From NCBI RefSeq assembly GCF_000020225.1, contig NC_010655.1:810001-842000 (forward strand): a stretch of 32,000 nucleotides of DNA. The letters run 5' to 3'. Source of the stretch: Akkermansia muciniphila ATCC BAA-835. Lineage in GTDB: Bacteria; Verrucomicrobiota; Verrucomicrobiia; Verrucomicrobiales; Akkermansiaceae. Position numbers and translations under genes: made by a program. The notes under the pieces are model-generated. The model was not told the origin of the DNA, made no database searches, and saw only the letters and a program-made list of their open reading frames with translations. This document shows positions 1 through 15,284 of the stretch, piece by piece (the first letter of the stretch is position 1; each line of letters begins with the position of its first letter).

Positions 1-2282
1 CCCTCAAAACTGAGGGCGGCAATATTTCCCTGGGAGACAATTCCGTCCTGGATGGCACTACTGTTTCCGCAGAATCCGCCGACCTGAACAAAACCGTTTA
101 CAGCAATGACGGCGGCAGCTGGAATACCGTCGCAAGCACTGAAAAGCTGGGCACCATCGAAGGCAGCGTCACGCTGGGTGAAAATACTACCGTCAAGGGA
201 AATTCCACCCTGACAGCGGATGACAATATCGCCATCGGCAACAACAGCGTCATCACCGGCAATACCGCCGCTGACGGCGTGATCTCCGCAGGTGGCCAGA
301 TTTCCATCGGGGACGGTACCCAGGTCTTGGATAACACCGCCACCAGCGACGGCAAAGCCGCCATCAACCTGGCGGACGGGCAAACCCTGTACATCGGCTC
401 CGGAGCAATCCTTTCCGGCAATACTTCCAACGGCGTTTCCGGTTCCGTGCAGGCTGGCCAAAACACCCAGATCAACGTTTATACGGACGCCACCGCCTAT
501 ACCTTCATCAATGACGGCATCTCCACCACGGCCGCCGCTTCCACGGCTGACGCCGCTCCGCTGGCTGCTGACCAGACCGTCATGACGAAGACCGGAGCGG
601 GAACTCTCGTTTACGGCGGCACAGGAACCACCGATACGTTCGGAGGAACCTACCAGCAGCTTGAAGGCAACCTGATCATCGGCCATGCCACCTTCGGCGC
701 CGTTGACTCCGCCACCGGAGAAGTCGGTCCGCTCCAGTCCATTGACGGCGCCGTAATGGGGACGGACGATACTGTTTACGACATTCGGACGGGACAGGTG
801 ACCCTGGCGAAGAATTCCACCATGAAGGGAGCTTCCGCCACTTTCGGAGGCGATTCTACCTTGCTGCTGAGCGACGGGTCCGTACTGGACTTCGGCACTC
901 CCGCCACGTTCCAGGATAATTCCCGCGTAGGCATCCAGGTATCCGACGCCAGCGGCAATCCCGTTCCGCTCGCCCAACTCCGCAAGGGGACGGAAAGCGT
1001 GACGGTCACGCTGAACGGCACGGACATTTCCGGACGCCTGCTGAACAACGTATTTCTGAGCACCACCATGGCTCCGGGAACGGCGGAAGGCACCACCACC
1101 ATCACCCAGGATATGAAGGGCATTGACGGCCCCATGTCCGGCTACAACGGCAACGTTTACACCGTAGCGGCCGCTCTGGAAAACAACCGTCTGAATGTGG
1201 CCGCCGGTTCTCCCGCCGCCCAGTTCTATGAAAACCTGTTCCGGGCCACGAGCGCGGATGAAGCGGCCCGCATCATCCAGTCCGTCAGCGGTGAACACGT
1301 GGTGAACTTCACCTGGGCAGCCAGCCGCACCGTGCGGAACTTCGCCGACCTGGGGCGCATTCAATCCGCCGCCTCCATGGCACGCCAGACGGAAGACACC
1401 GTTGAAGTAGTGGACGCCAAGGGTTCTCCGATCGCCCGCAAGACAATCGCCAGAGGCAACGGCAATATCTGGGTGGGCGGCATGGGAATCTGGGATGACC
1501 AAGATGCCCGCGACGGTGTTTCCGGGTATAAGTATAATGCCGGCGGTTATGCCGTAGGCATTGACTACAAAGCCGCTCAAGGTTCCCTGATCGGCATCGC
1601 CGCCGGTCAAAGCTTCGGCAGCTTCAAGGATAAGACAGGCATCGGCGCCGACTACGACGTCGATTCCTTCCTGGCCATGATTTATGGACGCATGCATCCC
1701 TTCAGGGACAGCAAGTTCACTCTGGACGGCTACGGCGCCTACGGACGTTCCCGTTTCAAAGGTGATTCCTACATCATGGGGTCTGCCGCCAACGGCAGAG
1801 CAGATACGGACACCTTCAGCGGCGCCCTTTACGGCACCTGGACGGAACGTTTCGCACTCGGCAGGGCCTTTATAACACCTTACACGGGTATTGAGTTCAT
1901 GACTTCCGAACTCAAGGGATTCTCTGAAAGCGGACCTTATGGGCGCACCTTCGGCCACGCCCGGGCCCAGAACTGGACCATTCCTGTCGGCATTACGATC
2001 GCCCGCGCCTACCAGACGGACGGAGGCACCACCATCACCCCGGCCTTGACGGTAGCCGTATCCCAGGATGTGAGCCGCATGAATCCGAAATCCAATGTCG
2101 CCGGCCCCCTCGGAACCTGGAACGCCCGCGGCGTCAATGTTGGCCGCACCGCATTCCGTTTGAATGCCGGCATTGATGTGCTCTTCTCCAACCAGTGGGG
2201 AGCACGCGTCTGCTACCAGTTCGAGACCCGCAACAAGCTGACCGCCCACGGTATCAACGGCGCCCTCAGCTATACGTTCTAA
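1..2282 (+). CDS. Autotransporter (type Va) outer-membrane protein, 5'-truncated by the window edge; beta-helix-like passenger plus C-terminal beta-barrel translocator
   Basis: The frame of the listed ORF 279..2282 (GTG-initiated in the track) stays open back to nt 3 with no stop, so the gene starts upstream of the window. The passenger is G/N/T/S/D-rich with recurring short G-x-N/T-x-I/V/L turns. The last ~280 aa show an alternating aromatic/hydrophobic beta-strand pattern and end in GALSYTF (terminal Phe, an OM beta-barrel signature). A strong terminator follows. Confidence 0.85.
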   Translation, partial: LKTEGGNISLGDNSVLDGTTVSAESADLNKTVYSNDGGSWNTVASTEKLGTIEGSVTLGENTTVKGNSTLTADDNIAIGNNSVITGNTAADGVISAGGQISIGDGTQVLDNTATSDGKAAINLADGQTLYIGSGAILSGNTSNGVSGSVQAGQNTQINVYTDATAYTFINDGISTTAAASTADAAPLAADQTVMTKTGAGTLVYGGTGTTDTFGGTYQQLEGNLIIGHATFGAVDSATGEVGPLQSIDGAVMGTDDTVYDIRTGQVTLAKNSTMKGASATFGGDSTLLLSDGSVLDFGTPATFQDNSRVGIQVSDASGNPVPLAQLRKGTESVTVTLNGTDISGRLLNNVFLSTTMAPGTAEGTTTITQDMKGIDGPMSGYNGNVYTVAAALENNRLNVAAGSPAAQFYENLFRATSADEAARIIQSVSGEHVVNFTWAASRTVRNFADLGRIQSAASMARQTEDTVEVVDAKGSPIARKTIARGNGNIWVGGMGIWDDQDARDGVSGYKYNAGGYAVGIDYKAAQGSLIGIAAGQSFGSFKDKTGIGADYDVDSFLAMIYGRMHPFRDSKFTLDGYGAYGRSRFKGDSYIMGSAANGRADTDTFSGALYGTWTERFALGRAFITPYTGIEFMTSELKGFSESGPYGRTFGHARAQNWTIPVGITIARAYQTDGGTTITPALTVAVSQDVSRMNPKSNVAGPLGTWNARGVNVGRTAFRLNAGIDVLFSNQWGARVCYQFETRNKLTAHGINGALSYTF

Positions 2283-2326
2283 GTAGGAGAGCGCTCCAGC
2301 GCATGCTTTTACTTGGTTATGGTAGG

Positions 2327-2357
2327 CCCTTTCCCGCCCCACGCGGGAAAGGGTTTT
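2327..2357 (+). terminator. Rho-independent terminator of the autotransporter gene
   Basis: Perfect 11-bp stem ccctttcccgc (2327-2337) / gcgggaaaggg (2343-2353), 5-nt loop, then TTTT (2354-2357). It lies 45 nt after the stop codon. Confidence 0.8.
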
Positions 2358-2393
2358 CCGTATGTTTCCGCATCCGTTCTTTTAATTCCTCTG

Positions 2394-2577
2394 CGGATTC
2401 CCAATCCGAAAAATAAATCCACGTCTCTTTATTATGCATAAATAATTGGAATTGTGAATTATATAATGGTTTTAAATTTCCCGCAGGAAAGTTTCTGGTT
2501 ATAAGACGACTCTGTTCATGTATTTGTATAAACATCTCGTTTTTATCGTTTAGTGTTGACTTCGGATTGGGAATCCG
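2394..2577. repeat. Perfect 17-bp inverted repeat pair flanking a 150-bp AT-rich spacer (candidate invertible element or paired palindromic operators)
   Basis: cggattcccaatccgaa (2394-2410) and its exact reverse complement ttcggattgggaatccg (2561-2577). Each arm is itself a palindrome, CGGATT-N3-AATCCG. The enclosed 2411-2560 is strongly AT-rich and carries a TATAAT-containing tract (tatataat, ~2460-2467). The right arm ends 33 nt before the ATG at 2610. Confidence 0.75.
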
Positions 2578-2609
2578 TTACCCGTGCTTTTTTGAAGTAC
2601 CTGATCAAC

Positions 2610-3350
2610 ATGAAATTATCTACATTCTGCATCTTATGTTGCCTTTCCGCAGGTCTTTCCCAGGCTGCCACCTACGTCTGGAGCGGAGCGGCAGGGAACG
2701 GAATTTACGGAAATTCCAACAACTGGACGGTCAACGGCGCGCCGAACGGCTATTATCCGCAAAGCAATAGTGATACCGCCATCATCGGAGAAAATGCCGG
2801 AACGATCACCTGGTCCACCGGGCAATCTTATTTCGGAGCCACTAACACAGTCCAAATAGACTCCGGAAGCACCCTGCTTTGTACAACGGAAATAGGAGAT
2901 CTCAACGTTAATTCTTTCACGCTGAAAGGCAATTCCCAATTGATATTTGAATCCAGCAACGCCCTTGGACTGGGACGTGATTTCACGCTGAACTTCGGCA
3001 CGTTTACGGCGGAGGAACACGGTTCCTGGGTTGCCACGAATCTCCCCAGCTTCTGGACCAATGGGAAAACCGTCACCTTCGTCGGCACACTGGATATGAA
3101 CAACCTTTCCGGAAGCGGAACTATTGAACTCGCTTCCATTAAATCTTCCCAACTGGGAGGCAATCTCAATTTGGACCTGAGCGGCCTGGACATTACCGGC
3201 AACAACCAAATTCAAGCGGATGTAACACAGGTCACGGAAAACGACATCATCAAGGTGTTGATTAACTACGAAACCGTTCCGGAACCCACAACGGCCACGC
3301 TGAGCCTCCTGGGACTGGGCGGTCTGCTGTTAAGAAGAAAGAGACAGTAG
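2610..3350 (+). CDS. PEP-CTERM sorting-domain surface/secreted protein
   Basis: ATG at 2610 gives a clean signal peptide, MKLSTFCILCCLSAGLSQA. The listed 2553 GTG start adds a non-signal extension running through the inverted repeat. The C-terminus VPEPTTATLSLLGLGGLLLRRKRQ has the PEP motif, a hydrophobic helix and a basic tail. The body is G/N/T/S-rich. Confidence 0.8.
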   Translation: MKLSTFCILCCLSAGLSQAATYVWSGAAGNGIYGNSNNWTVNGAPNGYYPQSNSDTAIIGENAGTITWSTGQSYFGATNTVQIDSGSTLLCTTEIGDLNVNSFTLKGNSQLIFESSNALGLGRDFTLNFGTFTAEEHGSWVATNLPSFWTNGKTVTFVGTLDMNNLSGSGTIELASIKSSQLGGNLNLDLSGLDITGNNQIQADVTQVTENDIIKVLINYETVPEPTTATLSLLGLGGLLLRRKRQ

Positions 3351-4990: not shown

Positions 4991-6271
4991 TTATTTGGAA
5001 GGCTGCATGACCTGCCGCCCCGTCGTAATGGCGATGGCATCCGCCAGCGGCATTTCCTTCTCCGTATGGGCGGCCCCCCAGGAATCTGAAAAGATAAGCG
5101 TTTTCTTTTCCTCGTCAAAACCGATAATCAGCCTCAAATGGCCTCCGCGCGTCTGGGACAAACGCAACGGTTCCGGAACAATGCCAAGCTGCACGGACCA
5201 AAACACGGGGATGCCCGCCATGATATAGGGCCTGATGGCATTGAGCCACCTGTCCACCTGGGACGGTGATCCGGCACGCGCCAGCTTCAGGACTTCTCCG
5301 TCCGCATTGTCCCAGAAACCGGACCAGTCATGTTCATTTTCCACCTTCTCTTTTTTCAGCTTGGAGGCAGCGCGGTTATAGGCTTTCAGCAGATTCCTGA
5401 AATCACGGGAATTCGCCAGGGAATCCAGCACTTTGATCCGTATCTGGAAGCGCGTCCCGATTTTTTTCAGGTTTTCCGCCATTGCCGCCGTATTAGTGCC
5501 TCCGTCCGCAGAGGTATTGGCCAGGGAAGCCAGTTCATGCTGATCCACATAGTCCATTCCATAATAGGCAAAAATGCGGGCGGCGGTAGCCACCACGCAA
5601 TAACCTTTCTGGCCCTGGTCCACCATGGGAATATCCTGAATCACCACCCGCTTTCCTTCTTTCCTGACGTGCTGCTTGATATCCGCCTTTCTGGCCCGGG
5701 AAGAAGCATCTCCCCTCGCGATGGAATCTTCCGTGGGACCGGCCTTCATCCGGATAAATTCCGCTTCAAACTCCCTGCCCTCCCGCGATGTATTGATCTC
5801 CAGGGTAATCGCCCCGTTGTCCCAAATCCAGGACCAGCCGTTGACTTTGACTACCGCCTCCTTACGGGAGGCCCGGTACTCCTTGGGCTGAATCCCGGTA
5901 AGAGCGGTCAGGGATTCCTTGATGAGCTCCAGGCGCTTGTCAAATTCATCCTTGCCAATGGCCCCGTTATCCCCCTTGTTGTACATCATGACAGTCATTG
6001 ACTGGGGGGCTCCGTCCTTCCAGTTCACCAGCATTTCCCCCAGGGACATGTCCCCTATCTTGATGGAGGGCTTCGCAATCCGGAGCTGGGTCTTGCCTTT
6101 ATCCACCCAGCCGCCGGGCTCTCCGTTAAAATACTTTCCGAACAAATCCGGCTGAGGCAGCTTCCAGAACGCACCAGACTTTAAATCCGGCGCCATGTTG
6201 CCCGCGCCCCAGGCGGAGGGAAGAAGGCAGCAGACTGAAAGGAAAGGCAGAATGGCAGAGATAAATCGCAT
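4991..6271 (-). CDS. Secreted protein with an uncharacterised N-terminal domain and a C-terminal papain-fold (C39-like) cysteine peptidase domain
   Basis: Signal peptide MRFISAILPFLSVCCLLPSAWG. The C-terminal half shows the Gln/Cys block QGQKGYCVVATAARIFAYYG (Cys225, codon 5597-5599) and the His/Asp block GGHLRLIIGFDEEKKTLIFSDSWG, matching the C39-like peptidase pattern (Q..C...yyG ... H..vv.Gyd....i.D). The N-terminal ~180 aa are not recognised. Confidence 0.65.
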   Translation of the reverse strand: MRFISAILPFLSVCCLLPSAWGAGNMAPDLKSGAFWKLPQPDLFGKYFNGEPGGWVDKGKTQLRIAKPSIKIGDMSLGEMLVNWKDGAPQSMTVMMYNKGDNGAIGKDEFDKRLELIKESLTALTGIQPKEYRASRKEAVVKVNGWSWIWDNGAITLEINTSREGREFEAEFIRMKAGPTEDSIARGDASSRARKADIKQHVRKEGKRVVIQDIPMVDQGQKGYCVVATAARIFAYYGMDYVDQHELASLANTSADGGTNTAAMAENLKKIGTRFQIRIKVLDSLANSRDFRNLLKAYNRAASKLKKEKVENEHDWSGFWDNADGEVLKLARAGSPSQVDRWLNAIRPYIMAGIPVFWSVQLGIVPEPLRLSQTRGGHLRLIIGFDEEKKTLIFSDSWGAAHTEKEMPLADAIAITTGRQVMQPSK

Positions 6272-6853: not shown

Positions 6854-7531
6854 TTATTCTTCCGCATCGGCGCCATCATCGGAAGACTCTTCAGCAGAAA
6901 CGTCATCGGCCGTTTCTTCATCGGCGGCGGGAGCAGCGGGGGCAGGCTTGGAGTCTCCGCCCAGCCAGCCAACCATGCTGCGGGCTTCCAAGGTGTCCGT
7001 AGCGTATTGATAACCGATGAAAACAAGCGCAAAGGCAAGGGCCACAAAGGAGAGGACATTCAGCAGCGTACTGGGAGCCGCATCCGTATCTTCTTGAAAC
7101 TTCCTGGCCGTAAAGGAGGCGGAAGAAACCGGAGAGGCCGCGGGTGCGGTATTCAGCCCGATGGTGGCCTGCGGAAGCTGTGCTGTCGCCATGCCTGCTC
7201 CGGGAGGAGTCAGAGGAACAGTAGGAGCGGCAGCGGCAGGCGCCGCGCCAGCAGGAGGAACCACGGGGGCCACAGGCGTAGTGGCGGAGCCGAGGGCAAC
7301 CGTCTTTAATCCTCCGCCAAGCTTGATGCCTCCGCCAAGACCGGCGGGACGAAGGGGAATAGTGGGCGCAGCGGCGGCAGGCGGAGCAGCAGGTGCCGCA
7401 GGCGCGGCGGCTACCGGAGGAACGGCCGGAGCGGCAGGTGCCTTGGGCACGGAAGGAGCAGCCGGCGGAGTCGGAATGCTGGGCGGAGGCGGAGTACCGC
7501 CCGGAATGGAGGGGGGAGGTGGATTACTCAT
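6854..7531 (-). CDS. Pro/Ala-rich low-complexity membrane-anchored protein with an acidic C-terminal tail (hypothetical)
   Basis: About 150 aa of P/A/G/V low complexity, one clear TM helix (LLNVLSFVALAFALVFIGYQY), then an acidic tail (ADEETADDVSAEESSDDGADAEE). It ends 38 nt upstream of trxA on the same strand. The antisense frame is also open because of composition. Confidence 0.6.
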   Translation of the reverse strand: MSNPPPPSIPGGTPPPPSIPTPPAAPSVPKAPAAPAVPPVAAAPAAPAAPPAAAAPTIPLRPAGLGGGIKLGGGLKTVALGSATTPVAPVVPPAGAAPAAAAPTVPLTPPGAGMATAQLPQATIGLNTAPAASPVSSASFTARKFQEDTDAAPSTLLNVLSFVALAFALVFIGYQYATDTLEARSMVGWLGGDSKPAPAAPAADEETADDVSAEESSDDGADAEE

Positions 7532-7719
7532 ATCGGAAAAATAACTGTGCTGAACGATAGCTCTCGCTTATTTCAGCCCGTAAATCAAGAAAAAGAATGC
7601 GTAGAACCTGAATTCCGTGCAATTTTTTTTAATTTGAAGCGTATTCCATCTCAAACACGCTGTCCGGACTTGCCCTGAAAAGCGTTCTTTCCTACGCTGT
7701 GTATCCGGCATTATCTCAT

Positions 7720-8400
7720 ATGAAACCCATTACCAAACTAGCTTCCTCCACCCTGCCCGACGGCTCCGTTCTCGACCTATGGGAACGGGACGGTTTCCAC
7801 TTTCTTTTGCGCGACGGCGTACAGACAGCGTCCAGCTTTTCCCACGGAAGCAATGAAGCGGCGGCAGCCATGGCGGCGGCTCCGGTTAAAAGAGCCAACC
7901 AGCCCTCCTTCCTTCTCGACGGCCTCGGCCTGGGATTCACCCTGTTCGCCCTGATGGATCAAATTCGCAGAGAAAAGGCCCGCTTCATCGTGGCGGAACC
8001 CTGCAAACCGCTTATCTACTGGCACAAGGAACTGATGAACCAGGAACGGCCCGGATTCCTGCACGATCCCCGCGTCAGCGTGGAATTTACCCCGGCGCTT
8101 CAAATCGCCCGCAAGAATCCGAAAAGCTTCCACGCCATTCTGTCCCATTCCACGCACGAACGCATGAACCTGAGCGTAGCCGAAGCTTCCGACTATTTTG
8201 CCGCACTCAAGCAGGGCGGTCTGCTGGTCATTACGGTAGCCCGCCCGGACACCCGACTTTCCCGGACACTGCAAAAAGCGGGGTTCGAAGTAAGCACGGA
8301 AGCCGTTCCGGCCTCACATAAAGGAAAGAAAACCGCTTTTCACACCGTTATTCTTGGAAAGAAGGGACGTTTCGTCCCCTTCTCCGCTCACCAGTCCTGA
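7720..8400 (+). CDS. Spermidine-synthase-like class I SAM-binding-fold protein (short form, no N-terminal tetramerisation domain)
   Basis: The pattern LDLWERDGFHFLLRDGVQTASSFSHGSNEA ... FLLDGLGLGFTLFALMD ... FIVAEPCKPLIYWHKE ... DPRVSVEF ... FHAILSH ... ALKQGGLLVITV ... AGFEV matches the widespread bacterial spermine/spermidine-synthase-like family. ATG at 7720 is preferred over the GTG at 7699. Confidence 0.65.
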   Translation: MKPITKLASSTLPDGSVLDLWERDGFHFLLRDGVQTASSFSHGSNEAAAAMAAAPVKRANQPSFLLDGLGLGFTLFALMDQIRREKARFIVAEPCKPLIYWHKELMNQERPGFLHDPRVSVEFTPALQIARKNPKSFHAILSHSTHERMNLSVAEASDYFAALKQGGLLVITVARPDTRLSRTLQKAGFEVSTEAVPASHKGKKTAFHTVILGKKGRFVPFSAHQS

Positions 8401-8415
8401 TTCCATCCTATTATT

Positions 8416-9600
8416 ATGAACTGCACATCCCTTACCATGGCCGGACTTCTGGCCGCCCTGTCCCTGGGAATTCCCTCCCTGGCGGATTCCATTGCCCCGG
8501 GCATTCTTCTTCCCAAAAAAAATACCAAATCCATTTCCTTCTCCCCCAAGGGGACCTCGGACATTTTCCTGCTCGGAATCATGCCGCAGGGAAGTTCCGT
8601 CAAGAAAGGGGAATCCGTAGCTCAGGCGGACTTCCGCATACTGGACAATAGTATCGAAGATTATGAACGCGCCATCAAGAGCAAGAACCTGGAGGTGTTG
8701 AAACTCCGGTACGCCCTGGACCAGCAGAAGGAACGTTCCGCCCTGGCCCTGCAAAAATATCAGACGGCCCTGACACGGACGGAAGAGGATCAAAAGGATT
8801 TTCTGGAAAAACGGAAGGCCCGCATGCTGGCGGAAGAAGAGGAACGCGTCAACAAAGCCCTGCGCCACATGTCCTACAAACAGGAAGAGCTGAACCAGCT
8901 TACCAAGATGTACAAGGATGACCAGGTGGCGGAAGAAACGGAAGAGATCATTTTGAAACGCCTGAAAAATGAACTTGGGGAAAGCGAATTTGCCGTTCAG
9001 GGAGCCAAACTCGTTGCGGAACTGGCCAAGCTGCGCAATATTCATCGCCTGGGGGAAGACTATGCTACGGCAGTCAAGGAAAAGCAGATGGATCTGGAAC
9101 AGGCAAGGAAGCAGGCGGATTTTGATCTGGAACAGAAAAAGATAGCCCTGACGGAGGCGGAAGTCTCCCTGAGACGCCTTCAGAATAAGTACAATGAACT
9201 GAAAGCAGACCGGGAAATGGCCTCTTTCAAGGCCCCGGAAAACGGCATCCTGCTGTACGGCGGATATGTGGCGGACAAGTGGGTGGCCATTCCGGTGGCG
9301 GAAAAGCTGAAACCCGGCGGCAAACTGGGAGCTTTTGACAAAATCGCCACCATCGTTCCGCCAAACTCGGAACTGATTGTCCAGGCTACTCTTCCGGACT
9401 CCACCGCTACGCCCAAGGTGGGGGAAACCGTCGTCATCAAAATAACGAACATGCAGATTCCCGGCGTTATTACGGAAGCCAGCCCCATTCCGGGAGCAGA
9501 CGGCAAGCGCCGCATTATCATCACGCCCAAGGTTCCCGCCAGCCAGATTTTCGCCCCCGGCCTTCCCGTCCAGGTGACCATCAAGGACCAACAGGCCTGA
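8416..9600 (+). CDS. HlyD/membrane-fusion-protein-like periplasmic adaptor (pump partner not present in window)
   Basis: Signal peptide, then a lipoyl-like half motif (SVKKGESVAQADF), a ~200-aa heptad-rich coiled-coil hairpin, a second half motif (FKAPENGILLYG) and a beta-barrel-like tail (VGETVVIKI...GVITEASPIP). This is the standard MFP architecture. Confidence 0.72.
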   Translation: MNCTSLTMAGLLAALSLGIPSLADSIAPGILLPKKNTKSISFSPKGTSDIFLLGIMPQGSSVKKGESVAQADFRILDNSIEDYERAIKSKNLEVLKLRYALDQQKERSALALQKYQTALTRTEEDQKDFLEKRKARMLAEEEERVNKALRHMSYKQEELNQLTKMYKDDQVAEETEEIILKRLKNELGESEFAVQGAKLVAELAKLRNIHRLGEDYATAVKEKQMDLEQARKQADFDLEQKKIALTEAEVSLRRLQNKYNELKADREMASFKAPENGILLYGGYVADKWVAIPVAEKLKPGGKLGAFDKIATIVPPNSELIVQATLPDSTATPKVGETVVIKITNMQIPGVITEASPIPGADGKRRIIITPKVPASQIFAPGLPVQVTIKDQQA

Positions 9601-9619
9601 TTTCCCTTAACGGATCCCC

Positions 9620-10846
9620 ATGAATAAAGCCGTCCTTTTCCTTGCCGCCCTTGGAGCCAGTACGGCGCTCTGCGCTCCTGTTCCGGCGGAAAAAGCGGAA
9701 AAAAGGGATACCATTCCCATTGCCAGGGTTCCGGATGTTCCGCCTCCCTCCCGGGAAACGCTGGACGCTTCTATCCGGAAGGCGGCTGACTTTCTGTTGA
9801 AAGAACAGAACAGGGACGGTTCCTGGGGAAACCATACGCGCACCAAGGGTCTGAATGTTCTCTGCCCTTATCCGGAAGGCCCCAGATCATTCAGGACAGC
9901 CTCCACCTCTTTGTGCGTGATCGGCCTCCTGACCAGCCCCCTGAAAGAAGACCCCGCCGTCAAGGCATCCCTGGACAAGGCGCTGCAGTACCTGCTAACC
10001 ACGCTGCCCACCCTGAAACGGGGAGACACCCGTACCGTGCTTGGCGTATGGGGCCATGCCTACGGCCTCTCCGCCCTGAGCCGGGCGGCGCGGAACCTTC
10101 CTGCGGATGCCCCTTTGCGCGAAGAACTCAAAAAGGTGGCCTCCCTCCAAGTCAAAGCGCTGGACCAGATGGCGGACGTCCAAGGCGGCTGGGGCTATTA
10201 CACATTTGAAACTTTTTCCAAGCGTCCCATTGGAGAACCCACTTCCTTCCTGACGGCTACAGTCCTTCTTGCCTACAAGGACGCGGAACAGGCCTTTGGC
10301 CTCAAAGCGGAACCCCGCATCGTCAAACGCGCCGTCGCCTGCCTGGAAAAACTGAGGACGCCCGCCGGCAGCTACGTCTATTCCCTTTCCCATTCCTTTT
10401 ATCCCGGCAGGCCCATCAACCGCCACACCGGCAGCCTGGCCCGCACTCCCGCCGGGGATCTGGCTCTGATGCGGTATGACCCGTCCTTTATTTCCAGGAG
10501 TCAGCTGGAAGACGGCCTGGAACGCATCTGGAGCCGCGGCGGCTGGCTTTCGCTGGCTGTAAAGAAGCCCATTCCCCATGAAAGCTTTGCCCAGAACGCG
10601 GGCTATTTTTTCTATTACGGGTATTATTACGCCGCCCGCTGCCTGGAGGAAGTGACGCCGGAACACCTGGCGCGCCATGCGGCCCATCTGGCAAGCGACC
10701 TCCTGCCCATGCAGGAAGAAGACGGGTCCTGGTGGGATTACCCCCTGTACAATTACCACAAATTCTACGGCACCGGATATGCCTTATATGCCGTCTCCCG
10801 CGTCAGAGAATCCCTGTATCCCTCTGATGCGGCAACAACTTCATGA
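9620..10846 (+). CDS. Secreted prenyltransferase/squalene-cyclase-repeat (alpha/alpha toroid) protein, paralogue 1
   Basis: Signal peptide MNKAVLFLAALGASTALCA. QW-like repeats FLLKEQNRDGSWG and MQEEDGSWWDY, with GGWGYY in the middle. The periodic helical pattern is typical of terpenoid cyclase/prenyltransferase beta-subunit-type toroids. Confidence 0.72.
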   Translation: MNKAVLFLAALGASTALCAPVPAEKAEKRDTIPIARVPDVPPPSRETLDASIRKAADFLLKEQNRDGSWGNHTRTKGLNVLCPYPEGPRSFRTASTSLCVIGLLTSPLKEDPAVKASLDKALQYLLTTLPTLKRGDTRTVLGVWGHAYGLSALSRAARNLPADAPLREELKKVASLQVKALDQMADVQGGWGYYTFETFSKRPIGEPTSFLTATVLLAYKDAEQAFGLKAEPRIVKRAVACLEKLRTPAGSYVYSLSHSFYPGRPINRHTGSLARTPAGDLALMRYDPSFISRSQLEDGLERIWSRGGWLSLAVKKPIPHESFAQNAGYFFYYGYYYAARCLEEVTPEHLARHAAHLASDLLPMQEEDGSWWDYPLYNYHKFYGTGYALYAVSRVRESLYPSDAATTS

Positions 10847-10849
10847 CCC

Positions 10850-12103
10850 ATGTTCCGCCCGCTGACGACCATTTTTCTCGCCACCTTGTGCCTGCATCTT
10901 CCCGCAGCGCAGGGGGAATCCGTGCCAGAGGAAAAAACGGATGTTATTCCAATCGCCAAAATCTCGGATATTTCCCCCGCAAAACCCGGACAATTTGACA
11001 GGGCATTCCGCCGCGGCGTGGATTTCCTGCTGAAAACGCAAAATAAGGACGGCTCCTGGGGCGACCACCGGGTAATCGGCACCTGGAACATCCTCTGCCC
11101 CTACCCGGACGGGCCCCTCACCTTCAAAACAGCCAGTACCGCCCTGTGCATTGCAGGGCTCAACGCCAGCCCCCTGCATCATGAACCCGTCGTGCAGGAA
11201 GCCATGACCCGTGCTGAAGACTATCTAATCCGTACGATGCCCCATCTGAAACGCGGCGACGCTCTGTGCGTTTACAACACCTGGGCGCATACTTACGTGC
11301 TGGATGCCATGAGCATGAGGGCTGCAAGACTGGCCCCGGACAGCCTTCGCTACAGGGAACTGAAGGAATGCGCCCGCTCCCAGGTAAAAAAACTTAATGA
11401 ACTGGCTTCCGCCATGGGGGGCTGGGGCTACCTCACTTATTCCGGCTTCAGCAAACGCCCTGCGGCCCAGCCCACCTCTTTCCTGACGGGAACCGTCCTT
11501 ATCTCCGCCTGGATGGCAGGAAAATCATTCGGCCTTTCCCTTGATGATAAAATATTTACCCGCGCGCTGAAATTCCTCAAATCCCAGAGGACGCCTGCGG
11601 GAACCTATGTTTATTCCCTTTCCCATTCCTTCTATCCCGGCAGGCCCATCAACCGCCATACCGGCAGCCTGGCCCGGACTCCCGCCTGTGATTACGCCAT
11701 CAGGCTCTGGGAACCGGAGGACATCTCCCTGCGCCAGCTTGTGGACGGCCTGGACCGCCTGTGGAGCCGCAGGGGATGGCTGACGATGGCCCTGCATAAA
11801 CCAACTCCCCACGAGAGTTTCGCCCAGAATTCCGGCTATTTTTTCTATTACGGATACTATTATTCAGGAATGTGCCTGGACATGCTGGCGCCAAACCAGG
11901 TAAAGCGTCATGCATCCCTGTTGGCGGACGATATTCTCACCCGCCAGGGAACAGACGGGGCCTGGTGGGACTACCCCCTGTATAATTACCACAAATTCTA
12001 CGGCACCGGATATGCCCTGTACGCTCTTTCCCGCGCCTGGGACAAGCTGTACGGCCAACCGGAACCTTCTCCATCCTCTATTTCCACACTATCCCGGCCA
12101 TGA
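10850..12103 (+). CDS. Secreted prenyltransferase/squalene-cyclase-repeat (alpha/alpha toroid) protein, paralogue 2
   Basis: Collinear with paralogue 1 over its whole length, with roughly half or more of residues identical by eye. Same motifs (FLLKTQNKDGSWG, GGWGYL, TDGAWWDY). It starts 3 nt after the paralogue 1 stop. Confidence 0.72.
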   Translation: MFRPLTTIFLATLCLHLPAAQGESVPEEKTDVIPIAKISDISPAKPGQFDRAFRRGVDFLLKTQNKDGSWGDHRVIGTWNILCPYPDGPLTFKTASTALCIAGLNASPLHHEPVVQEAMTRAEDYLIRTMPHLKRGDALCVYNTWAHTYVLDAMSMRAARLAPDSLRYRELKECARSQVKKLNELASAMGGWGYLTYSGFSKRPAAQPTSFLTGTVLISAWMAGKSFGLSLDDKIFTRALKFLKSQRTPAGTYVYSLSHSFYPGRPINRHTGSLARTPACDYAIRLWEPEDISLRQLVDGLDRLWSRRGWLTMALHKPTPHESFAQNSGYFFYYGYYYSGMCLDMLAPNQVKRHASLLADDILTRQGTDGAWWDYPLYNYHKFYGTGYALYALSRAWDKLYGQPEPSPSSISTLSRP

Positions 12104-13245
12104 TAAATACCATGAAATCGCTTTTGGCGCTCTGCCTGTTTTACAGTGCGGCTTCCGTCTCCACCGCAGAAACCCCAATTAAACATACTTCCTTCAGACC
12201 CGGAGAAATCTGGACGGACAACAACGGCGCGCACATCAACGCCCACGGCGGCGGCATCCTGTACGACAAGGGAACCTATTACTGGTACGGGGAACACAAG
12301 GTGGAGGGGGACGCGGGAAACTATGCCCAGGTGGGGGTTCACTGCTATTCCTCCAAAGACCTCTATAACTGGAAGGACGAAGGAATCGCCCTGAAGGTGG
12401 TGGAGGGGGACCATTCCCACCCCATCGCCAGGGGCTGCATCCTGGAACGCCCCAAAGTGGTTTACAACAAAAAGACCGGAAAGTACGTGATGTGGTTCCA
12501 CCTGGAACTCAAGGGGAAAGGATATGGATCCGCTTACGCGGGGGTGGCAACGGCAGCAAAACCCACAGGGCCATTTAAGTTCCTGAAGGCCGGGCGAGTC
12601 AATCCGGGCAAATGGCCCCTGAACATGGATAAAAAGGACCAAACCATGGAGACATTCAAAGGGGTACCCGGCCTGACTTCCAGCGCACTGCCCGAAGGCG
12701 TACGTTCCGAGGATATGTTCAAGAAGGATTTTGAAAAAGGACAGATGAGCCGGGACATGACCATTTTTGTGGATGACGACGGCAAGGCCTACCACATTTA
12801 TTCTTCTGAAGAAAATAGCACAACACACATTGCGGAGCTGACACCGGATTACACGGGGCATACGGGAAAATTCGTCCGGGCATTTCCCGGACGCTTCATG
12901 GAAGCTCCCGCCATCTTCAAACATAAAGGCAAATACTATTTCATCGCCTCCGGATGCACGGGCTGGGCTCCCAACGCCGCCCGCAGCGCCGTGGCCAAAA
13001 ACATCGCCGGCCCATGGATGGAATTGAAAAATCCCTGCGTGGGGCCCAAGGCAGGCATCACGTTCGGCGGCCAGAGCACTTTCATCCTGCCCGTGCAGGG
13101 CAAGCCCGGAAAATTCATCTTCATGGCGGACATCTGGCGACCGCAAAATGCCATTGACGGCCGCTATATGTGGCTTCCCATCCAGTTTGACGGAGACCAG
13201 ATCAAACTGGAATGGAAGGACGAATGGACGCTGAAAGACATGTAG
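12100..13245 (+). CDS. Glycoside hydrolase family 43 (five-bladed beta-propeller), copy A; possibly exo-beta-1,3-galactanase-like subfamily
   Basis: Signal peptide, then TDNNGAHINAHGGGILYDKGTYYWYGEHK, ILERPKVVYN..GKYVMWFH, RDMTIFVDDDGKAYHIYSSE, FMEAPAIFKHKGKYYFIASGCTGW and GKFIFMADIW. These are repeated propeller-blade motifs characteristic of GH43. The ATG at 12100 overlaps the upstream stop (ATGA); the alternative start is 12112 (MKSLL). The subfamily guess comes from remembered similarity of the AHGGGI..GTYYWYGE block and is unverified. Confidence 0.8.
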   Translation: MINTMKSLLALCLFYSAASVSTAETPIKHTSFRPGEIWTDNNGAHINAHGGGILYDKGTYYWYGEHKVEGDAGNYAQVGVHCYSSKDLYNWKDEGIALKVVEGDHSHPIARGCILERPKVVYNKKTGKYVMWFHLELKGKGYGSAYAGVATAAKPTGPFKFLKAGRVNPGKWPLNMDKKDQTMETFKGVPGLTSSALPEGVRSEDMFKKDFEKGQMSRDMTIFVDDDGKAYHIYSSEENSTTHIAELTPDYTGHTGKFVRAFPGRFMEAPAIFKHKGKYYFIASGCTGWAPNAARSAVAKNIAGPWMELKNPCVGPKAGITFGGQSTFILPVQGKPGKFIFMADIWRPQNAIDGRYMWLPIQFDGDQIKLEWKDEWTLKDM

Positions 13246-14375
13246 TACGTTTACCTCCAATACATATGAAAATATTAACAGCCATCCTTTCCGCTAATCT
13301 GGCATGCTGCCTTTTCTCCGTTGCCGCAGCAGAAACCCCAATTAAACACACCTCCTTCAGACCCGGGGAAATCTGGACGGACAACAACGGCGCGCACATC
13401 AACGCCCACGGCGGCGGCATCCTGTACGACAAGGGAACCTATTACTGGTACGGGGAACACAAGGTGGAGGGGGACGCGGGAAACTATGCCCAGGTGGGGG
13501 TTCACTGCTATTCCTCCAAAGACCTCTATAACTGGAAGGACGAAGGAATCGCCCTGAAGGTGGTGGAGGGGGACCATTCCCACCCCATCGCCAAGGGCTG
13601 CATCCTGGAACGCCCCAAAGTGGTTTACAACAAAAAGACCGGAAAGTACGTGATGTGGTTCCACCTGGAACTCAAGGGGAAAGGATATGGATCCGCTTAC
13701 GCGGGGGTGGCAACGGCAGCAAAACCCACAGGGCCATTCAAGTTCCTGAAAGCCGGGCGAGTCAACCCGGGCAAATGGCCCCTGAACATGGATAAAAAGG
13801 ATCAGACGACCGAATTCACCAAGGAAATGCCCGACTACGTCCGCATCATCCGCAGGGACTATCCCGGCGGGCAGATGAGCCGGGACATGACCATTTTTGT
13901 GGACGACAATGGAAAAGCCTACCACATCTATTCCTCGGAAGGCAATATCACCCTTCACATCGCGGAGCTGACGCCGGATTACACGGGGCATACGGGAAAA
14001 TATGTCCGGGCGTTCATCAACCGTTACATGGAAGCTCCTGCTATTTGCAAACACAAGGGCAAATACTATCTTATCGCTTCCGGATGCACGGGCTGGGCTC
14101 CCAACGCCGCCCGCAGCGCCGTGGCCAAAAACATCGCCGGCCCATGGATGGAATTGAAAAATCCCTGCGTGGGGCCCAAGGCAGGCATCACGTTCGGCGG
14201 CCAGAGCACTTTCATCCTGCCTGTACAGGGCAAACCCGGAAAATTCATCTTCATGGCGGACATCTGGCGGCCCAAAAACGCCATTGACGGCCGTTACCTG
14301 TGGCTGCCCATGAAATGGGAGGGTGACCAGATTATCCTGGAATGGAAGGATGAATGGACGCTGGATGACCTGTAA
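12166..14375 (+). repeat. Tandem direct duplication (~1.13-1.16 kb period) comprising the two GH43 genes
   Basis: 12166-12637 matches 13329-13800 (offset 1163) with only a handful of substitutions by eye. 12951-13100 matches 14081-14230 (offset 1130) without any difference I can see. The segment between is divergent and includes a net 33-nt length difference. Confidence 0.9.
13266..14375 (+). CDS. Glycoside hydrolase family 43, copy B (tandem paralogue of copy A)
   Basis: Same motifs as copy A. The ATG at 13266 gives signal peptide MKILTAILSANLACCLFSVAAA; the track start at 13212 overlaps copy A and adds no signal peptide. Confidence 0.8.
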   Translation: MKILTAILSANLACCLFSVAAAETPIKHTSFRPGEIWTDNNGAHINAHGGGILYDKGTYYWYGEHKVEGDAGNYAQVGVHCYSSKDLYNWKDEGIALKVVEGDHSHPIAKGCILERPKVVYNKKTGKYVMWFHLELKGKGYGSAYAGVATAAKPTGPFKFLKAGRVNPGKWPLNMDKKDQTTEFTKEMPDYVRIIRRDYPGGQMSRDMTIFVDDNGKAYHIYSSEGNITLHIAELTPDYTGHTGKYVRAFINRYMEAPAICKHKGKYYLIASGCTGWAPNAARSAVAKNIAGPWMELKNPCVGPKAGITFGGQSTFILPVQGKPGKFIFMADIWRPKNAIDGRYLWLPMKWEGDQIILEWKDEWTLDDL

Positions 14376-14394
14376 ATTTATCTCCTTCCTTTTT

Positions 14395-14868
14395 ATGCAG
14401 GATACGGTTTATTGCTTCCATCTCCTTGCCGGAAGGCAGAAGCGGAGCCTTCTGTATGCCTTGTGCTCCGCTCTCCTTGTTGCAGCAGTCTGGCTGCTTC
14501 ATCCGGAATGGCCTTTCTGGGCGGGCTACATTGCCTGGGCACTCGCTTACGCGGCAACGCTGATTGTTCAACACACCATTCCCCTTCCCATCCGCTGCCC
14601 GCACTGCGGAAACGCCGGGCTTTATTCTGCTCCGCAAACTCCGGAAGAACAAAGAAGGCCGGATACAGGCATCATGCTGGAATGCCGGGGTTGCGGTTCC
14701 ACCTTTTACACGGACGCCTATTTGCCCTGGCCGGGAAAAATTATCCGCCGGCGCCCCACTTGCCCGGAAGAATGGGAAGAAAAATCTGCCCGTAAACAAG
14801 CCGGGCCCGCTTCCTCCGGAGAGGAACGCAGGCCGGAAAGGTCTTTCGTCAACGGAGGAAAAATCTAA
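14395..14868 (+). CDS. Small membrane protein with a C-terminal zinc-ribbon (hypothetical)
   Basis: The ATG at 14395 lies 19 nt after the GH43-B stop. Two hydrophobic helices (LLYALCSALLVAAVWLL, AGYIAWALAYAATLIV) are followed by CPHC-x32-CRGC and a basic/acidic tail. There is no family recognition. Confidence 0.5.
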   Translation: MQDTVYCFHLLAGRQKRSLLYALCSALLVAAVWLLHPEWPFWAGYIAWALAYAATLIVQHTIPLPIRCPHCGNAGLYSAPQTPEEQRRPDTGIMLECRGCGSTFYTDAYLPWPGKIIRRRPTCPEEWEEKSARKQAGPASSGEERRPERSFVNGGKI

Positions 14869-15284
14869 CGGGCTTTTTTGGAAGCCATCACGTAATTCCT
14901 CATGCGCTGGTCTGCGGGGGTGGTGGGGCGCACGCTGGTAACCCAATTGCCGTCCTTATCCTTCTTTTTGATTTCCGTTCTGTCGCGGTACAATTTCGCG
15001 GAGAAATCGCTGGAATCAAGAACAACCGGCCCCGGACCTGTCGTGACAATGGGAGTGGGAGGAACCTCCGCAACCACCGTCATTGGAGCGGCAAGGGAAT
15101 TATACCAGTACACCAGTTCCTGCTGGCCGACAGGATCGTCCGGATAAGGAGCATAAGCTCCGTTATTGGTGGAAACCTTTACATAGGCCGGTTCCGGAAA
15201 TGTGGTCTGATAGGAAGAGGGGGAACAGGCCCCCAACAACAAAAGGCCGGCTCCGCCGGCAATAATCATGGAATGCAGTTTCAT
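14865..15284 (-). CDS. Lipoprotein (hypothetical)
   Basis: MKLHSMIIAGGAGLLLLGAC carries a lipobox (LLGAC). It is convergent with the upstream cluster, and the stop codons overlap (cta/taa at 14865-14868). Confidence 0.65.
   Translation of the reverse strand: MKLHSMIIAGGAGLLLLGACSPSSYQTTFPEPAYVKVSTNNGAYAPYPDDPVGQQELVYWYNSLAAPMTVVAEVPPTPIVTTGPGPVVLDSSDFSAKLYRDRTEIKKKDKDGNWVTSVRPTTPADQRMRNYVMASKKAR

Follow-up and report, generated by a model that had tools for sequence, protein, structure and literature searches.

A periplasmic adaptor–toroid gene pair with no pump gene beside it is the conserved core of a composite operon in Akkermansia muciniphila

Almost all that is understood of membrane fusion proteins (MFPs) concerns their role as adaptors, which link an energised pump of the inner membrane to a duct of the outer membrane; their genes normally adjoin the gene of their pump. 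In tripartite pumps, the membrane-proximal base of the adaptor is the position of the transporter's periplasmic domain. MFP-like proteins are also met in polymer export: in the alginate system, Alg44, which has an MFP-like periplasmic domain, and AlgL, a periplasmic alpha/alpha-toroid lyase, belong to one export apparatus, and BcsZ takes part in cellulose secretion. Here we describe a locus of Akkermansia muciniphila ATCC BAA-835 in which an MFP gene is followed by genes for exported toroid proteins. The locus lies in a window of 32,000 nucleotides (nt), the whole stretch of DNA that was analysed (contig NC_010655.1, positions 810,001 to 842,000 of the forward strand; all positions given for this locus are counted from the first letter of the window). 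An earlier annotation made from the letters alone, called the original prediction below, had joined seven genes of this window into one envelope module for glycan capture, processing or scaffolding. Our results show that the object of interest is smaller and much older than this seven-gene proposal: it is a pump-less adaptor–toroid system of the Planctomycetes–Verrucomicrobia–Chlamydiae (PVC) superphylum.

We analysed the proteins of the window by means of a list of open reading frames (ORFs), searches against Pfam, NCBIfam and PDB sequences, AlphaFold2 (AF2) models and Foldseek searches of these models against the PDB. The seven-gene cluster proved to be a composite operon, in which lineage-specific additions flank an older core. 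The reading that we prefer, at a probability of roughly 55%, is that this core encodes a two-protein periplasmic assembly of adaptor and toroid to which glycoside hydrolase (GH) genes were appended. The features of the cluster are listed here with their lengths in amino acids (aa); the locus tags of g5 and g6 are published, and those of g1 to g4 and g7 (Amuc_0693 to Amuc_0696 and Amuc_0699) are presumed from consecutive numbering.

g1, 7720..8400, + strand: cytoplasmic spermidine-synthase-like protein of 226 aa (polyamine biosynthesis, PABS, fold) with degenerate motifs; presumably Amuc_0693
g2, 8416..9600, + strand: exported periplasmic adaptor (MFP) of 394 aa, EmrA/MacA type; presumably Amuc_0694
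g2 hairpin-tip motif, 8884..8961, + strand: codons 157–182 of g2, EELxQLxxMYxxDxxxExTEEIILxR
g3, 9620..10846, + strand: exported (alpha/alpha)6 toroid of 408 aa; presumably Amuc_0695
g4, 10850..12103, + strand: exported toroid of 417 aa, paralogue of g3; presumably Amuc_0696
g5, 12100..13245, + strand: GH43 subfamily 24 protein with an extended loop; published as Amuc_0697
g6, 13266..14375, + strand: GH43 subfamily 24 protein, tandem duplicate of g5; published as Amuc_0698
g7, 14395..14868, + strand: small membrane protein of 157 or 167 aa with a CxxC...CxxC arrangement; presumably Amuc_0699

The first contigs found to carry distant homologues of g2 had a gene for a toroid of ~400 aa directly downstream and no GH43 gene. 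Between phyla, the toroid keeps 40–45% identity (the value for g3 against its Planctomycete homologues), compared with ~24% for the adaptor. Because it is so much better conserved, the toroid served as the anchor of a scan that covered one genome per GTDB species. Toroid relatives were detected in at least 558 species genomes, nearly all of them titled as Planctomycetota (Pirellulales, Gemmatales, Planctomycetales, Phycisphaerae) or Verrucomicrobiota (Akkermansiaceae, Verrucomicrobiales, Opitutia). A toroid profile searched against 1.84 billion representative sequences returned 433 clusters (50% identity) at E<=1e-30. We fetched 79 loci, 76 of which included sequence upstream of the toroid gene, and found an adaptor ORF directly upstream and on the same strand in 69 of the 76 (~90%). 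The junctions between the two genes mostly measured -4 to +40 nt, and fourteen of them were 4-nt overlaps; the pair is tightly and translationally coupled. The gene that follows the toroid gene was convergent in 45 of 77 loci, and the toroid gene is therefore usually the last of its operon.

When the neighbouring ORFs of these ~80 loci were clustered all against all, the recurrent families were the toroid, the adaptor and g1-like proteins alone. No pump, transporter, duct, synthase or hydrolase recurred near the pair; apart from the g1-like proteins, the co-directional operonic neighbours were heterogeneous. We conclude that the adaptor–toroid pair is an ancient conserved core, present in two phyla, beside which no pump is encoded. 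The core was also present in PVC bacteria of the sea, soil and fresh water, which are not mucin degraders, so that a mucin-specific role of adaptor and toroid is unlikely. The original prediction had noted an adaptor juxtaposed with exported toroid proteins and had been unable to map the cluster to any described system. The first observation gains considerably in strength from the conserved gene order and from the natural fusions described below; as to the second, the literature that we searched holds no description of the pair.

Four natural proteins join adaptor and toroid in a single chain (P0229, P0237, P0249 and P0255; 830–986 aa). They are composed of an HlyD_3/HlyD_D23 adaptor that scores above cut-off, a Pro/Ala-rich linker and a toroid that has no signal peptide of its own, and the order is the same in all four: adaptor C-terminus, linker, toroid. 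P0237 occurred on four contigs, at least two of them from different samples, which argues that it is not an assembly error. These four fusions indicate that adaptor and toroid work together, probably in contact with each other. In P0237, the linker comprises ~25 residues and extends from the C-terminus of the adaptor; its geometry would therefore place the toroid near the base of the adaptor and not at the tip, ~140 Å away. The same ~25-residue linker, together with the 1:1 stoichiometry of the C-terminal fusions, disfavours an arrangement in which a single toroid caps a hexameric adaptor at the tips of its hairpins.

In one fusion locus (L095, 6778–13903), the P0237 gene overlaps a preceding gene of the beta-lactamase/DD-peptidase family (PF00144) by 4 nt and is located ~1.8 kb upstream of a gene for a PG_binding_1 protein. 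This neighbourhood hints at a peptidoglycan connection of that particular locus, which we do not extend to the others.

For g3, Pfam returned a weak match to SQHop_cyclase_C (31.8 bits), a marginal pass that covers one repeat region. The AF2 model of g3 is a single (alpha/alpha)6 barrel of 12 main helices (pLDDT, the predicted local distance difference test score, 89; pTM, the predicted template modelling score, 0.89), which begins after the signal peptide and spans ~360 residues in a protein of roughly 45 kDa. The paralogue g4 is 55% identical to g3 and keeps every residue that is invariant in the family. Two toroid genes were present in eight loci (L001–L004, L014 and L092–L094), whereas an Akkermansia metagenome-assembled genome (MAG; L013) and almost every other locus had one; the toroid is thus duplicated in Akkermansia, in most of the loci of the genus that we examined.

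An alignment of 42 toroid sequences contained 32 invariant residues, among them W144, H146, Y148, S209, F210, Y254, S272, R275, H320 and E321, the group Y329/F330/Y332/Y333 and the group W372/D373/Y377/Y379/H380. Apart from three repeats of the QW type (Q-x-x-D-G-S-W), these residues are found at the N-terminal ends of alternate helices or immediately in front of them. Such positions would border the central cavity of the modelled fold, which suggests a pocket for catalysis or ligand binding.

The toroid could be assigned to no family by our searches. Searched against the PDB with Foldseek, the model returned generic (alpha/alpha)6 matches alone, at a template modelling (TM) score of ~0.5: small squalene-cyclase-like proteins, cellobiose 2-epimerases, AprG, and proteins of the GH76, GH105 and polysaccharide lyase (PL)-like types. 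When PDB sequences were searched with the toroid profile, the matches were limited to the QW repeats of cyclases. A squalene or oxidosqualene (class II terpene) cyclase was rejected on the curated NCBIfam models, against which the toroid scored 32 bits for a cut-off of 322.7 (TIGR01787) and 31 bits for a cut-off of 431 (TIGR01507). It also has no DxDD or DCTAE motif; its sole invariant Asp is D373, and D368 belongs to a QW repeat. Squalene-hopene cyclase, moreover, is a two-barrel membrane enzyme of ~630 aa at the cytoplasmic face, whereas the toroid is a single exported barrel. A protein prenyltransferase beta subunit and a LanC-like protein, whose Zn ligands include conserved Cys, were rejected since the alignment of 42 sequences revealed no invariant or near-invariant Cys. 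The thioester domain (TED) of alpha-2-macroglobulin was rejected for want of a conserved Cys (CxEQ motif), and because the toroid is a single-domain protein, in contrast to a multi-domain protein of ~1500 aa; the Pfam family TED_complement gave 18.1 bits for g3, below its 22-bit cut-off, and is passed by one tandem-toroid relative. By the features tested, the toroid appears to be neither a squalene or terpene cyclase nor a prenyltransferase, a LanC protein or a thioester domain.

The adaptor g2 itself produced no match in the Pfam, NCBIfam or PDB sequence searches. Its remote homologues on Planctomycete-like contigs (24–31% identity, E-values of 1e-20 to 1e-28) carry the MFP domains PF25989, PF25967 and PF25975, whose names are YknX_C, RND-MFP_C and CzcB_C. 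The AF2 model of g2 (pLDDT 84) consists of beta strands, two helices of ~95 residues each (74–168 and 174–267) and further beta strands, and its best Foldseek matches were EmrA (4TKO, 2.8e-15), EmrAB-TolC and MacA (1.3e-11). The predicted fold confirms g2 as an MFP with a lipoyl domain, a long alpha-hairpin and a beta-barrel. The labels that the original prediction had given to the core genes can thus be retained: HlyD-like for g2, through the MFP domains of its remote homologues and the predicted fold, and toroid for g3 and g4, through weak SQHop_cyclase_C matches and the confident (alpha/alpha)6 model.

We aligned 32 adaptor sequences from the two phyla. The hairpin region was nearly gap-free despite an identity of ~24%, which argues that the length of the hairpin (~95 residues per helix, or roughly 140 Å) and its acidic tip are under constraint. 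Eleven of the 19 invariant columns fell in residues 157–180, and the motif of this region brackets the turn that the model places at residues 169–173, between the two helices. No stretch of the adaptor family is better conserved than the tip motif, which is kept in the fusion proteins as well as in the L097 adaptor. Akkermansia adaptors stop ~90 residues before those of Planctomycetes, that is, they have no C-terminal membrane-proximal domain; this domain is present in the Planctomycete adaptors and is missing from the L097 adaptor also. Most members of the family have a signal peptide without a lipobox, and we found no consistent lipobox or anchor among them.

Such an adaptor could belong to an ordinary tripartite efflux system, in which g2 serves a pump of the ATP-binding cassette (ABC; MacB-type), major facilitator superfamily (MFS) or resistance-nodulation-division (RND) class and a TolC duct, all encoded elsewhere, and in which the toroid is an accessory, for example in substrate handling. 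The fold and the remote homology to adaptors of the EmrA, MacA and YknX types agree with this explanation, as does the membrane-proximal domain of the Planctomycete adaptors, which normally contacts a pump; in one locus (L006), a MacB-like ABC pair is located 5 kb upstream on the opposite strand. However, the ~80 loci from two phyla share no pump or duct gene near the pair, the domain in question was lost from the Akkermansia and L097 adaptors, and the signal peptides are of the cleavable type, without a lipobox or anchor shared consistently by the family. Conservation and occasional fusion link the adaptor to a toroid and not to a transporter. We therefore regard efflux as unlikely.

We favour instead a composite operon with a two-protein adaptor–toroid assembly as its core. 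According to this reading, adaptor and toroid would be exported by the Sec pathway and form a periplasmic complex, in which the toroid would bind the membrane-proximal base of the adaptor. The putative pocket of the toroid, with its aromatic, His, Arg, Asp and Glu residues, may bind a substrate of the cell's own envelope, a glycan or a lipid-linked polymer, or modify it. At the other end, the invariant hairpin tip would dock onto an outer partner that is conserved as well, for which a TolC-like duct is the simplest candidate. The downstream glycoside hydrolases probably make use of the operon's transcription and would not be part of the conserved machine. Glycan capture, processing or scaffolding is one possible function of the core, and we keep it as such because toroid–hydrolase fusions exist elsewhere and because GH genes follow the toroids in several Akkermansia lineages.

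Several observations weigh against this assembly or parts of it. Seven of the 76 loci have a toroid and no upstream adaptor, and a relaxed hidden Markov model (HMM) search found no hidden adaptors in these seven; conversely, the adaptor of one lineage (P0071) is not followed by a toroid. Adaptor and toroid genes thus need not be paired in cis. The pocket was placed from secondary-structure positions and not from inspected coordinates. Docking to TolC by the adaptor tip is a guess, since the invariant acidic motif of the tip, MYKxDDxxEETEE, appears to differ from the canonical RLS motif with which hairpin tips dock TolC. Finally, different GH genes occupy the same slot of several Akkermansia lineages and hydrolase domains are fused to the toroid elsewhere, so that the GHs could be functional partners rather than passengers.

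A more far-reaching version of the adaptor–toroid assembly is an envelope machine specific to Planctomycetota and Verrucomicrobiota, in which a soluble (alpha/alpha)6 enzyme replaces the energised transporter at the MFP base and the invariant tip fits into a duct of the outer membrane. Such a machine would process a periplasmic polymer or lipid and hand it outwards, or would hold an envelope layer at a fixed distance, without a dedicated pump driven by ATP or the proton-motive force (PMF). We put this version forward as speculation and think it improbable.

The slot after the toroids was examined in the fetched loci. In A. muciniphila it is filled by g5 and g6, whose GH43 label in the original prediction is borne out by Pfam (76 and 73 bits for a cut-off of 32) and by matches to BT3683 (6EUG; 2e-130 and 1.3e-126), which is ~60% identical to both proteins over their full length. 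Ct1,3Gal43A and other exo-beta-1,3-galactanases also match g5 and g6, and the assignment to GH43 subfamily 24, based on these matches, is solid. Both proteins are already known as GH43_24 carbohydrate-active enzymes (CAZymes; PMC11790493). In a published screen, they were inactive on mucin or defined glycans and p-nitrophenyl-galactoside (pNP-Gal) was cleaved by Amuc_0698 alone (PMC11790493). Amuc_0697 was important on mucin in transposon sequencing (Tn-seq), yet it is poorly conserved among strains (10.1101/2024.03.27.586211).

At 84% amino-acid identity, g5 and g6 are a recent tandem duplicate. Their DNA identity is a mosaic of 98–100% at ~12210–12630 (~400 nt), 45–57% around 12630–12750 and 85–100% towards the 3' end, and the centre of low identity encodes the variable active-site loop. 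Such a pattern may be explained by gene conversion or by exchange of the loop subsequent to the duplication.

The last gene of the cluster, g7, encodes two hydrophobic segments followed by CPHC...CRGC, which resembles a Zn ribbon. All of its database matches were below threshold (Zn_ribbon_4, 0.0036; TgpA_N, 0.0012; ECs_2282_CxxC, 0.0019). It was called in all A. muciniphila loci and was absent at this position from L092–L094 and from all other loci. Among the fetched loci from outside Akkermansia, none contained a homologue of the GH43 genes or of g7, and only the A. muciniphila loci contained all seven genes. In two other Akkermansia lineages (L092 and L094), g1, the adaptor and two toroids are followed by one GH43 gene, and g7 is missing. 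In Akkermansia sp. N21169 (L093, 11855–17182), GH36 and GH20 genes follow the two toroids and a GH89 (NAGLU) gene is convergent; a MAG related to N21169 has GH36 (+GH20) in the same slot. In the Akkermansia MAG with one toroid (L013), the next gene encodes a non-GH protein of 1236 aa, which on visual inspection resembles a DEAH-box RNA helicase. What follows the toroids is thus variable, and in GH-rich Akkermansia this slot often holds exported glycoside hydrolases.

These hydrolases could also be read as the purpose of the system. The toroid would then be a non-enzymatic platform on the adaptor that docks or regulates exported hydrolases (GHs, an S41 protease, an SGNH esterase) and keeps them at one set height within the envelope, and the GH43 proteins of A. 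muciniphila would be its true partners. In other lineages, the toroid is indeed fused at its C-terminus to Peptidase_S41 (P0242) and to GDPD-like and GDSL/SGNH domains (P0206 and L020), and an adaptor gene still directly precedes each hydrolase-fused toroid (L097, 1524–3629; L098, 4046–6901; L020, 1173–4103). The exchange of GH43_24 for GH36 and GH20 between Akkermansia lineages and the reported importance of Amuc_0697 on mucin point in the same direction. Most PVC loci, however, have no hydrolase nearby and a convergent next gene, and the hydrolase fusions amount to three cases among hundreds of clusters. The 32 invariant residues at alternate helix N-termini, which probably line the cavity, favour a pocket over a docking surface. 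Taken together, these findings make a hydrolase platform rather improbable.

A single dedicated seven-gene envelope module for the capture or processing of host (mucin) glycans is very unlikely: although the genes are co-directional with junctions of <=20 nt and no terminator-like junction site, five products are exported, the examined A. muciniphila assemblies all show the same arrangement and Amuc_0697 has a Tn-seq phenotype on mucin, g5–g7 are not conserved within the genus and are absent elsewhere, the core is found in Planctomycetota and free-living Verrucomicrobiota without a mucin niche, and the GH43_24 enzymes were inactive on the mucin glycans tested. The original prediction, which took the seven genes as one glycan module, fails here on gene order: across Verrucomicrobiota, the order of adaptor and toroid is kept and that of g5–g7 is not.

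The core of the composite operon has one further recurrent companion, the g1 family, whose members were found at position -2 and on the same strand in 16 loci of Verrucomicrobiales/Akkermansiaceae only. A g1 gene joined the core in Verrucomicrobiales only. Searched alone, g1 had no match in Pfam or NCBIfam and none above threshold among PDB sequences. A profile of 10 g1 homologues matched SpeE of Bacillus subtilis (1IY9, 7e-8) and other spermidine synthases, and two of the 10 family members match the Pfam family Spermine_synth. The GGGDGG motif of SpeE aligns to GLGLG(F/H) in the g1 family, and A. muciniphila g1 has SHSTHE where SpeE has DSTEP; the acidic catalytic region is lost. Judged by these motifs, g1 is likely not an active aminopropyltransferase.

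With regard to the boundaries of the cluster, our ORF list and independent gene calls agree with the original prediction of seven + strand genes, separated by junctions of 15, 19, 3, -4, 20 and 19 nt and ending against a convergent gene, which encodes 139 aa (14865–15284, - strand) and overlaps the end of g7 by 4 nt. The same seven genes were present in independent calls on four A. muciniphila assemblies, and the g2 protein is encoded identically on many assemblies of the species, including the complete genome CP042830.1 at ~0.81 Mb. The start of g1 is the ATG at 7720 rather than the alternative at 7699, as its homologues all begin with MKP and public calls give 226 aa; the start of g7 is ambiguous in the gene calls (157 or 167 aa). 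A consensus scan found no terminator-like site in any + strand junction, in line with the earlier statement that there is none between the genes; the total number of sites was 12, with 13.3 expected from shuffling. No sigma-70 promoter was detected by a scan for such sites, and the window yielded neither an Rfam match nor a tRNA gene. Signal peptides were judged by eye from hydrophobic N-termini; such N-termini were present in g2–g6, that is, in five of the seven products as previously claimed, and g1 has no signal peptide.

The statement that the 32 kb contain no pump or duct gene was likewise confirmed: we found no ABC, RND or MFS pump and no TolC-like gene in the window, and the absence of a pump beside the pair holds across the two phyla. 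The only transporters of the window are a Cons_hypoth698 protein, a cation-diffusion facilitator and a Na+/H+ exchanger, and housekeeping genes are found elsewhere in it. Divergent from g1, a gene on the - strand (6854–7531) encodes a protein of 225 aa that consists mostly of Pro/Ala repeats, with a C-terminal part made up of a hydrophobic segment and an acidic tail. This protein matches no family and is conserved beside thioredoxin in other Akkermansia loci. Further away are a gene for an exported protein of 426 aa with a Peptidase_C39_2-like domain at its C-terminus (4991–6271, - strand) and, at 279–3350, the 3' part of an autotransporter gene (1051 aa) that runs off the start of the window, followed by a gene for a small PEP-CTERM protein.

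Our findings describe an MFP subfamily that is present in hundreds of species, including A. muciniphila, a heavily studied gut symbiont, and that is tied to an exported toroid instead of a pump. If the pair is indeed a self-contained machine, this would be a new use of the adaptor scaffold and would give a role to a well-conserved envelope protein of PVC bacteria. Amuc_0697 and Amuc_0698 lie at the end of a housekeeping-type operon, so that polarity and co-transcription are possible and should be considered when their transposon phenotypes and expression data are interpreted.

The closest described relatives of the adaptor are EmrA and MacA, which have a lipoyl domain, a long alpha-hairpin and a beta-barrel in the same order; Aquifex EmrA, as the Akkermansia adaptor, is also without a membrane-proximal domain. 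Unlike these adaptors, the g2 family has no recurrent pump or duct at its ~80 loci, a soluble-type signal peptide instead of a lipid or transmembrane anchor, an invariant acidic tip motif of its own and a toroid as its partner, sometimes in the same chain. The toroid shares the (alpha/alpha)6 barrel and QW-type repeats with squalene-hopene and other class II terpene cyclases, including the small single-barrel proteins 8PAK, 8PAJ and MstE. These small cyclases are its top Foldseek matches, and the profile similarity is confined to the QW repeats. In contrast to them, the toroid is exported, has 12–16% identity at a TM score of ~0.5, no invariant DxDD-type motif and NCBIfam scores at least 10-fold under the cut-offs, and its operon partner is an adaptor and not an isoprenoid gene. 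The downstream Amuc_0697 and Amuc_0698 are ~60% identical to the exo-beta-1,3-galactosidase BT3683, but their published activity is limited to that of Amuc_0698 on pNP-Gal. The alginate (Alg44/AlgL) and cellulose (BcsZ) systems combine an MFP-like protein with an alpha/alpha-toroid enzyme that cleaves a glycan, as adaptor and toroid are combined here. Our searches detected no sequence relationship of the toroid to AlgL or BcsZ. Those systems co-encode a synthase, an outer-membrane porin and further components, whereas none of these is conserved near the adaptor–toroid pair.

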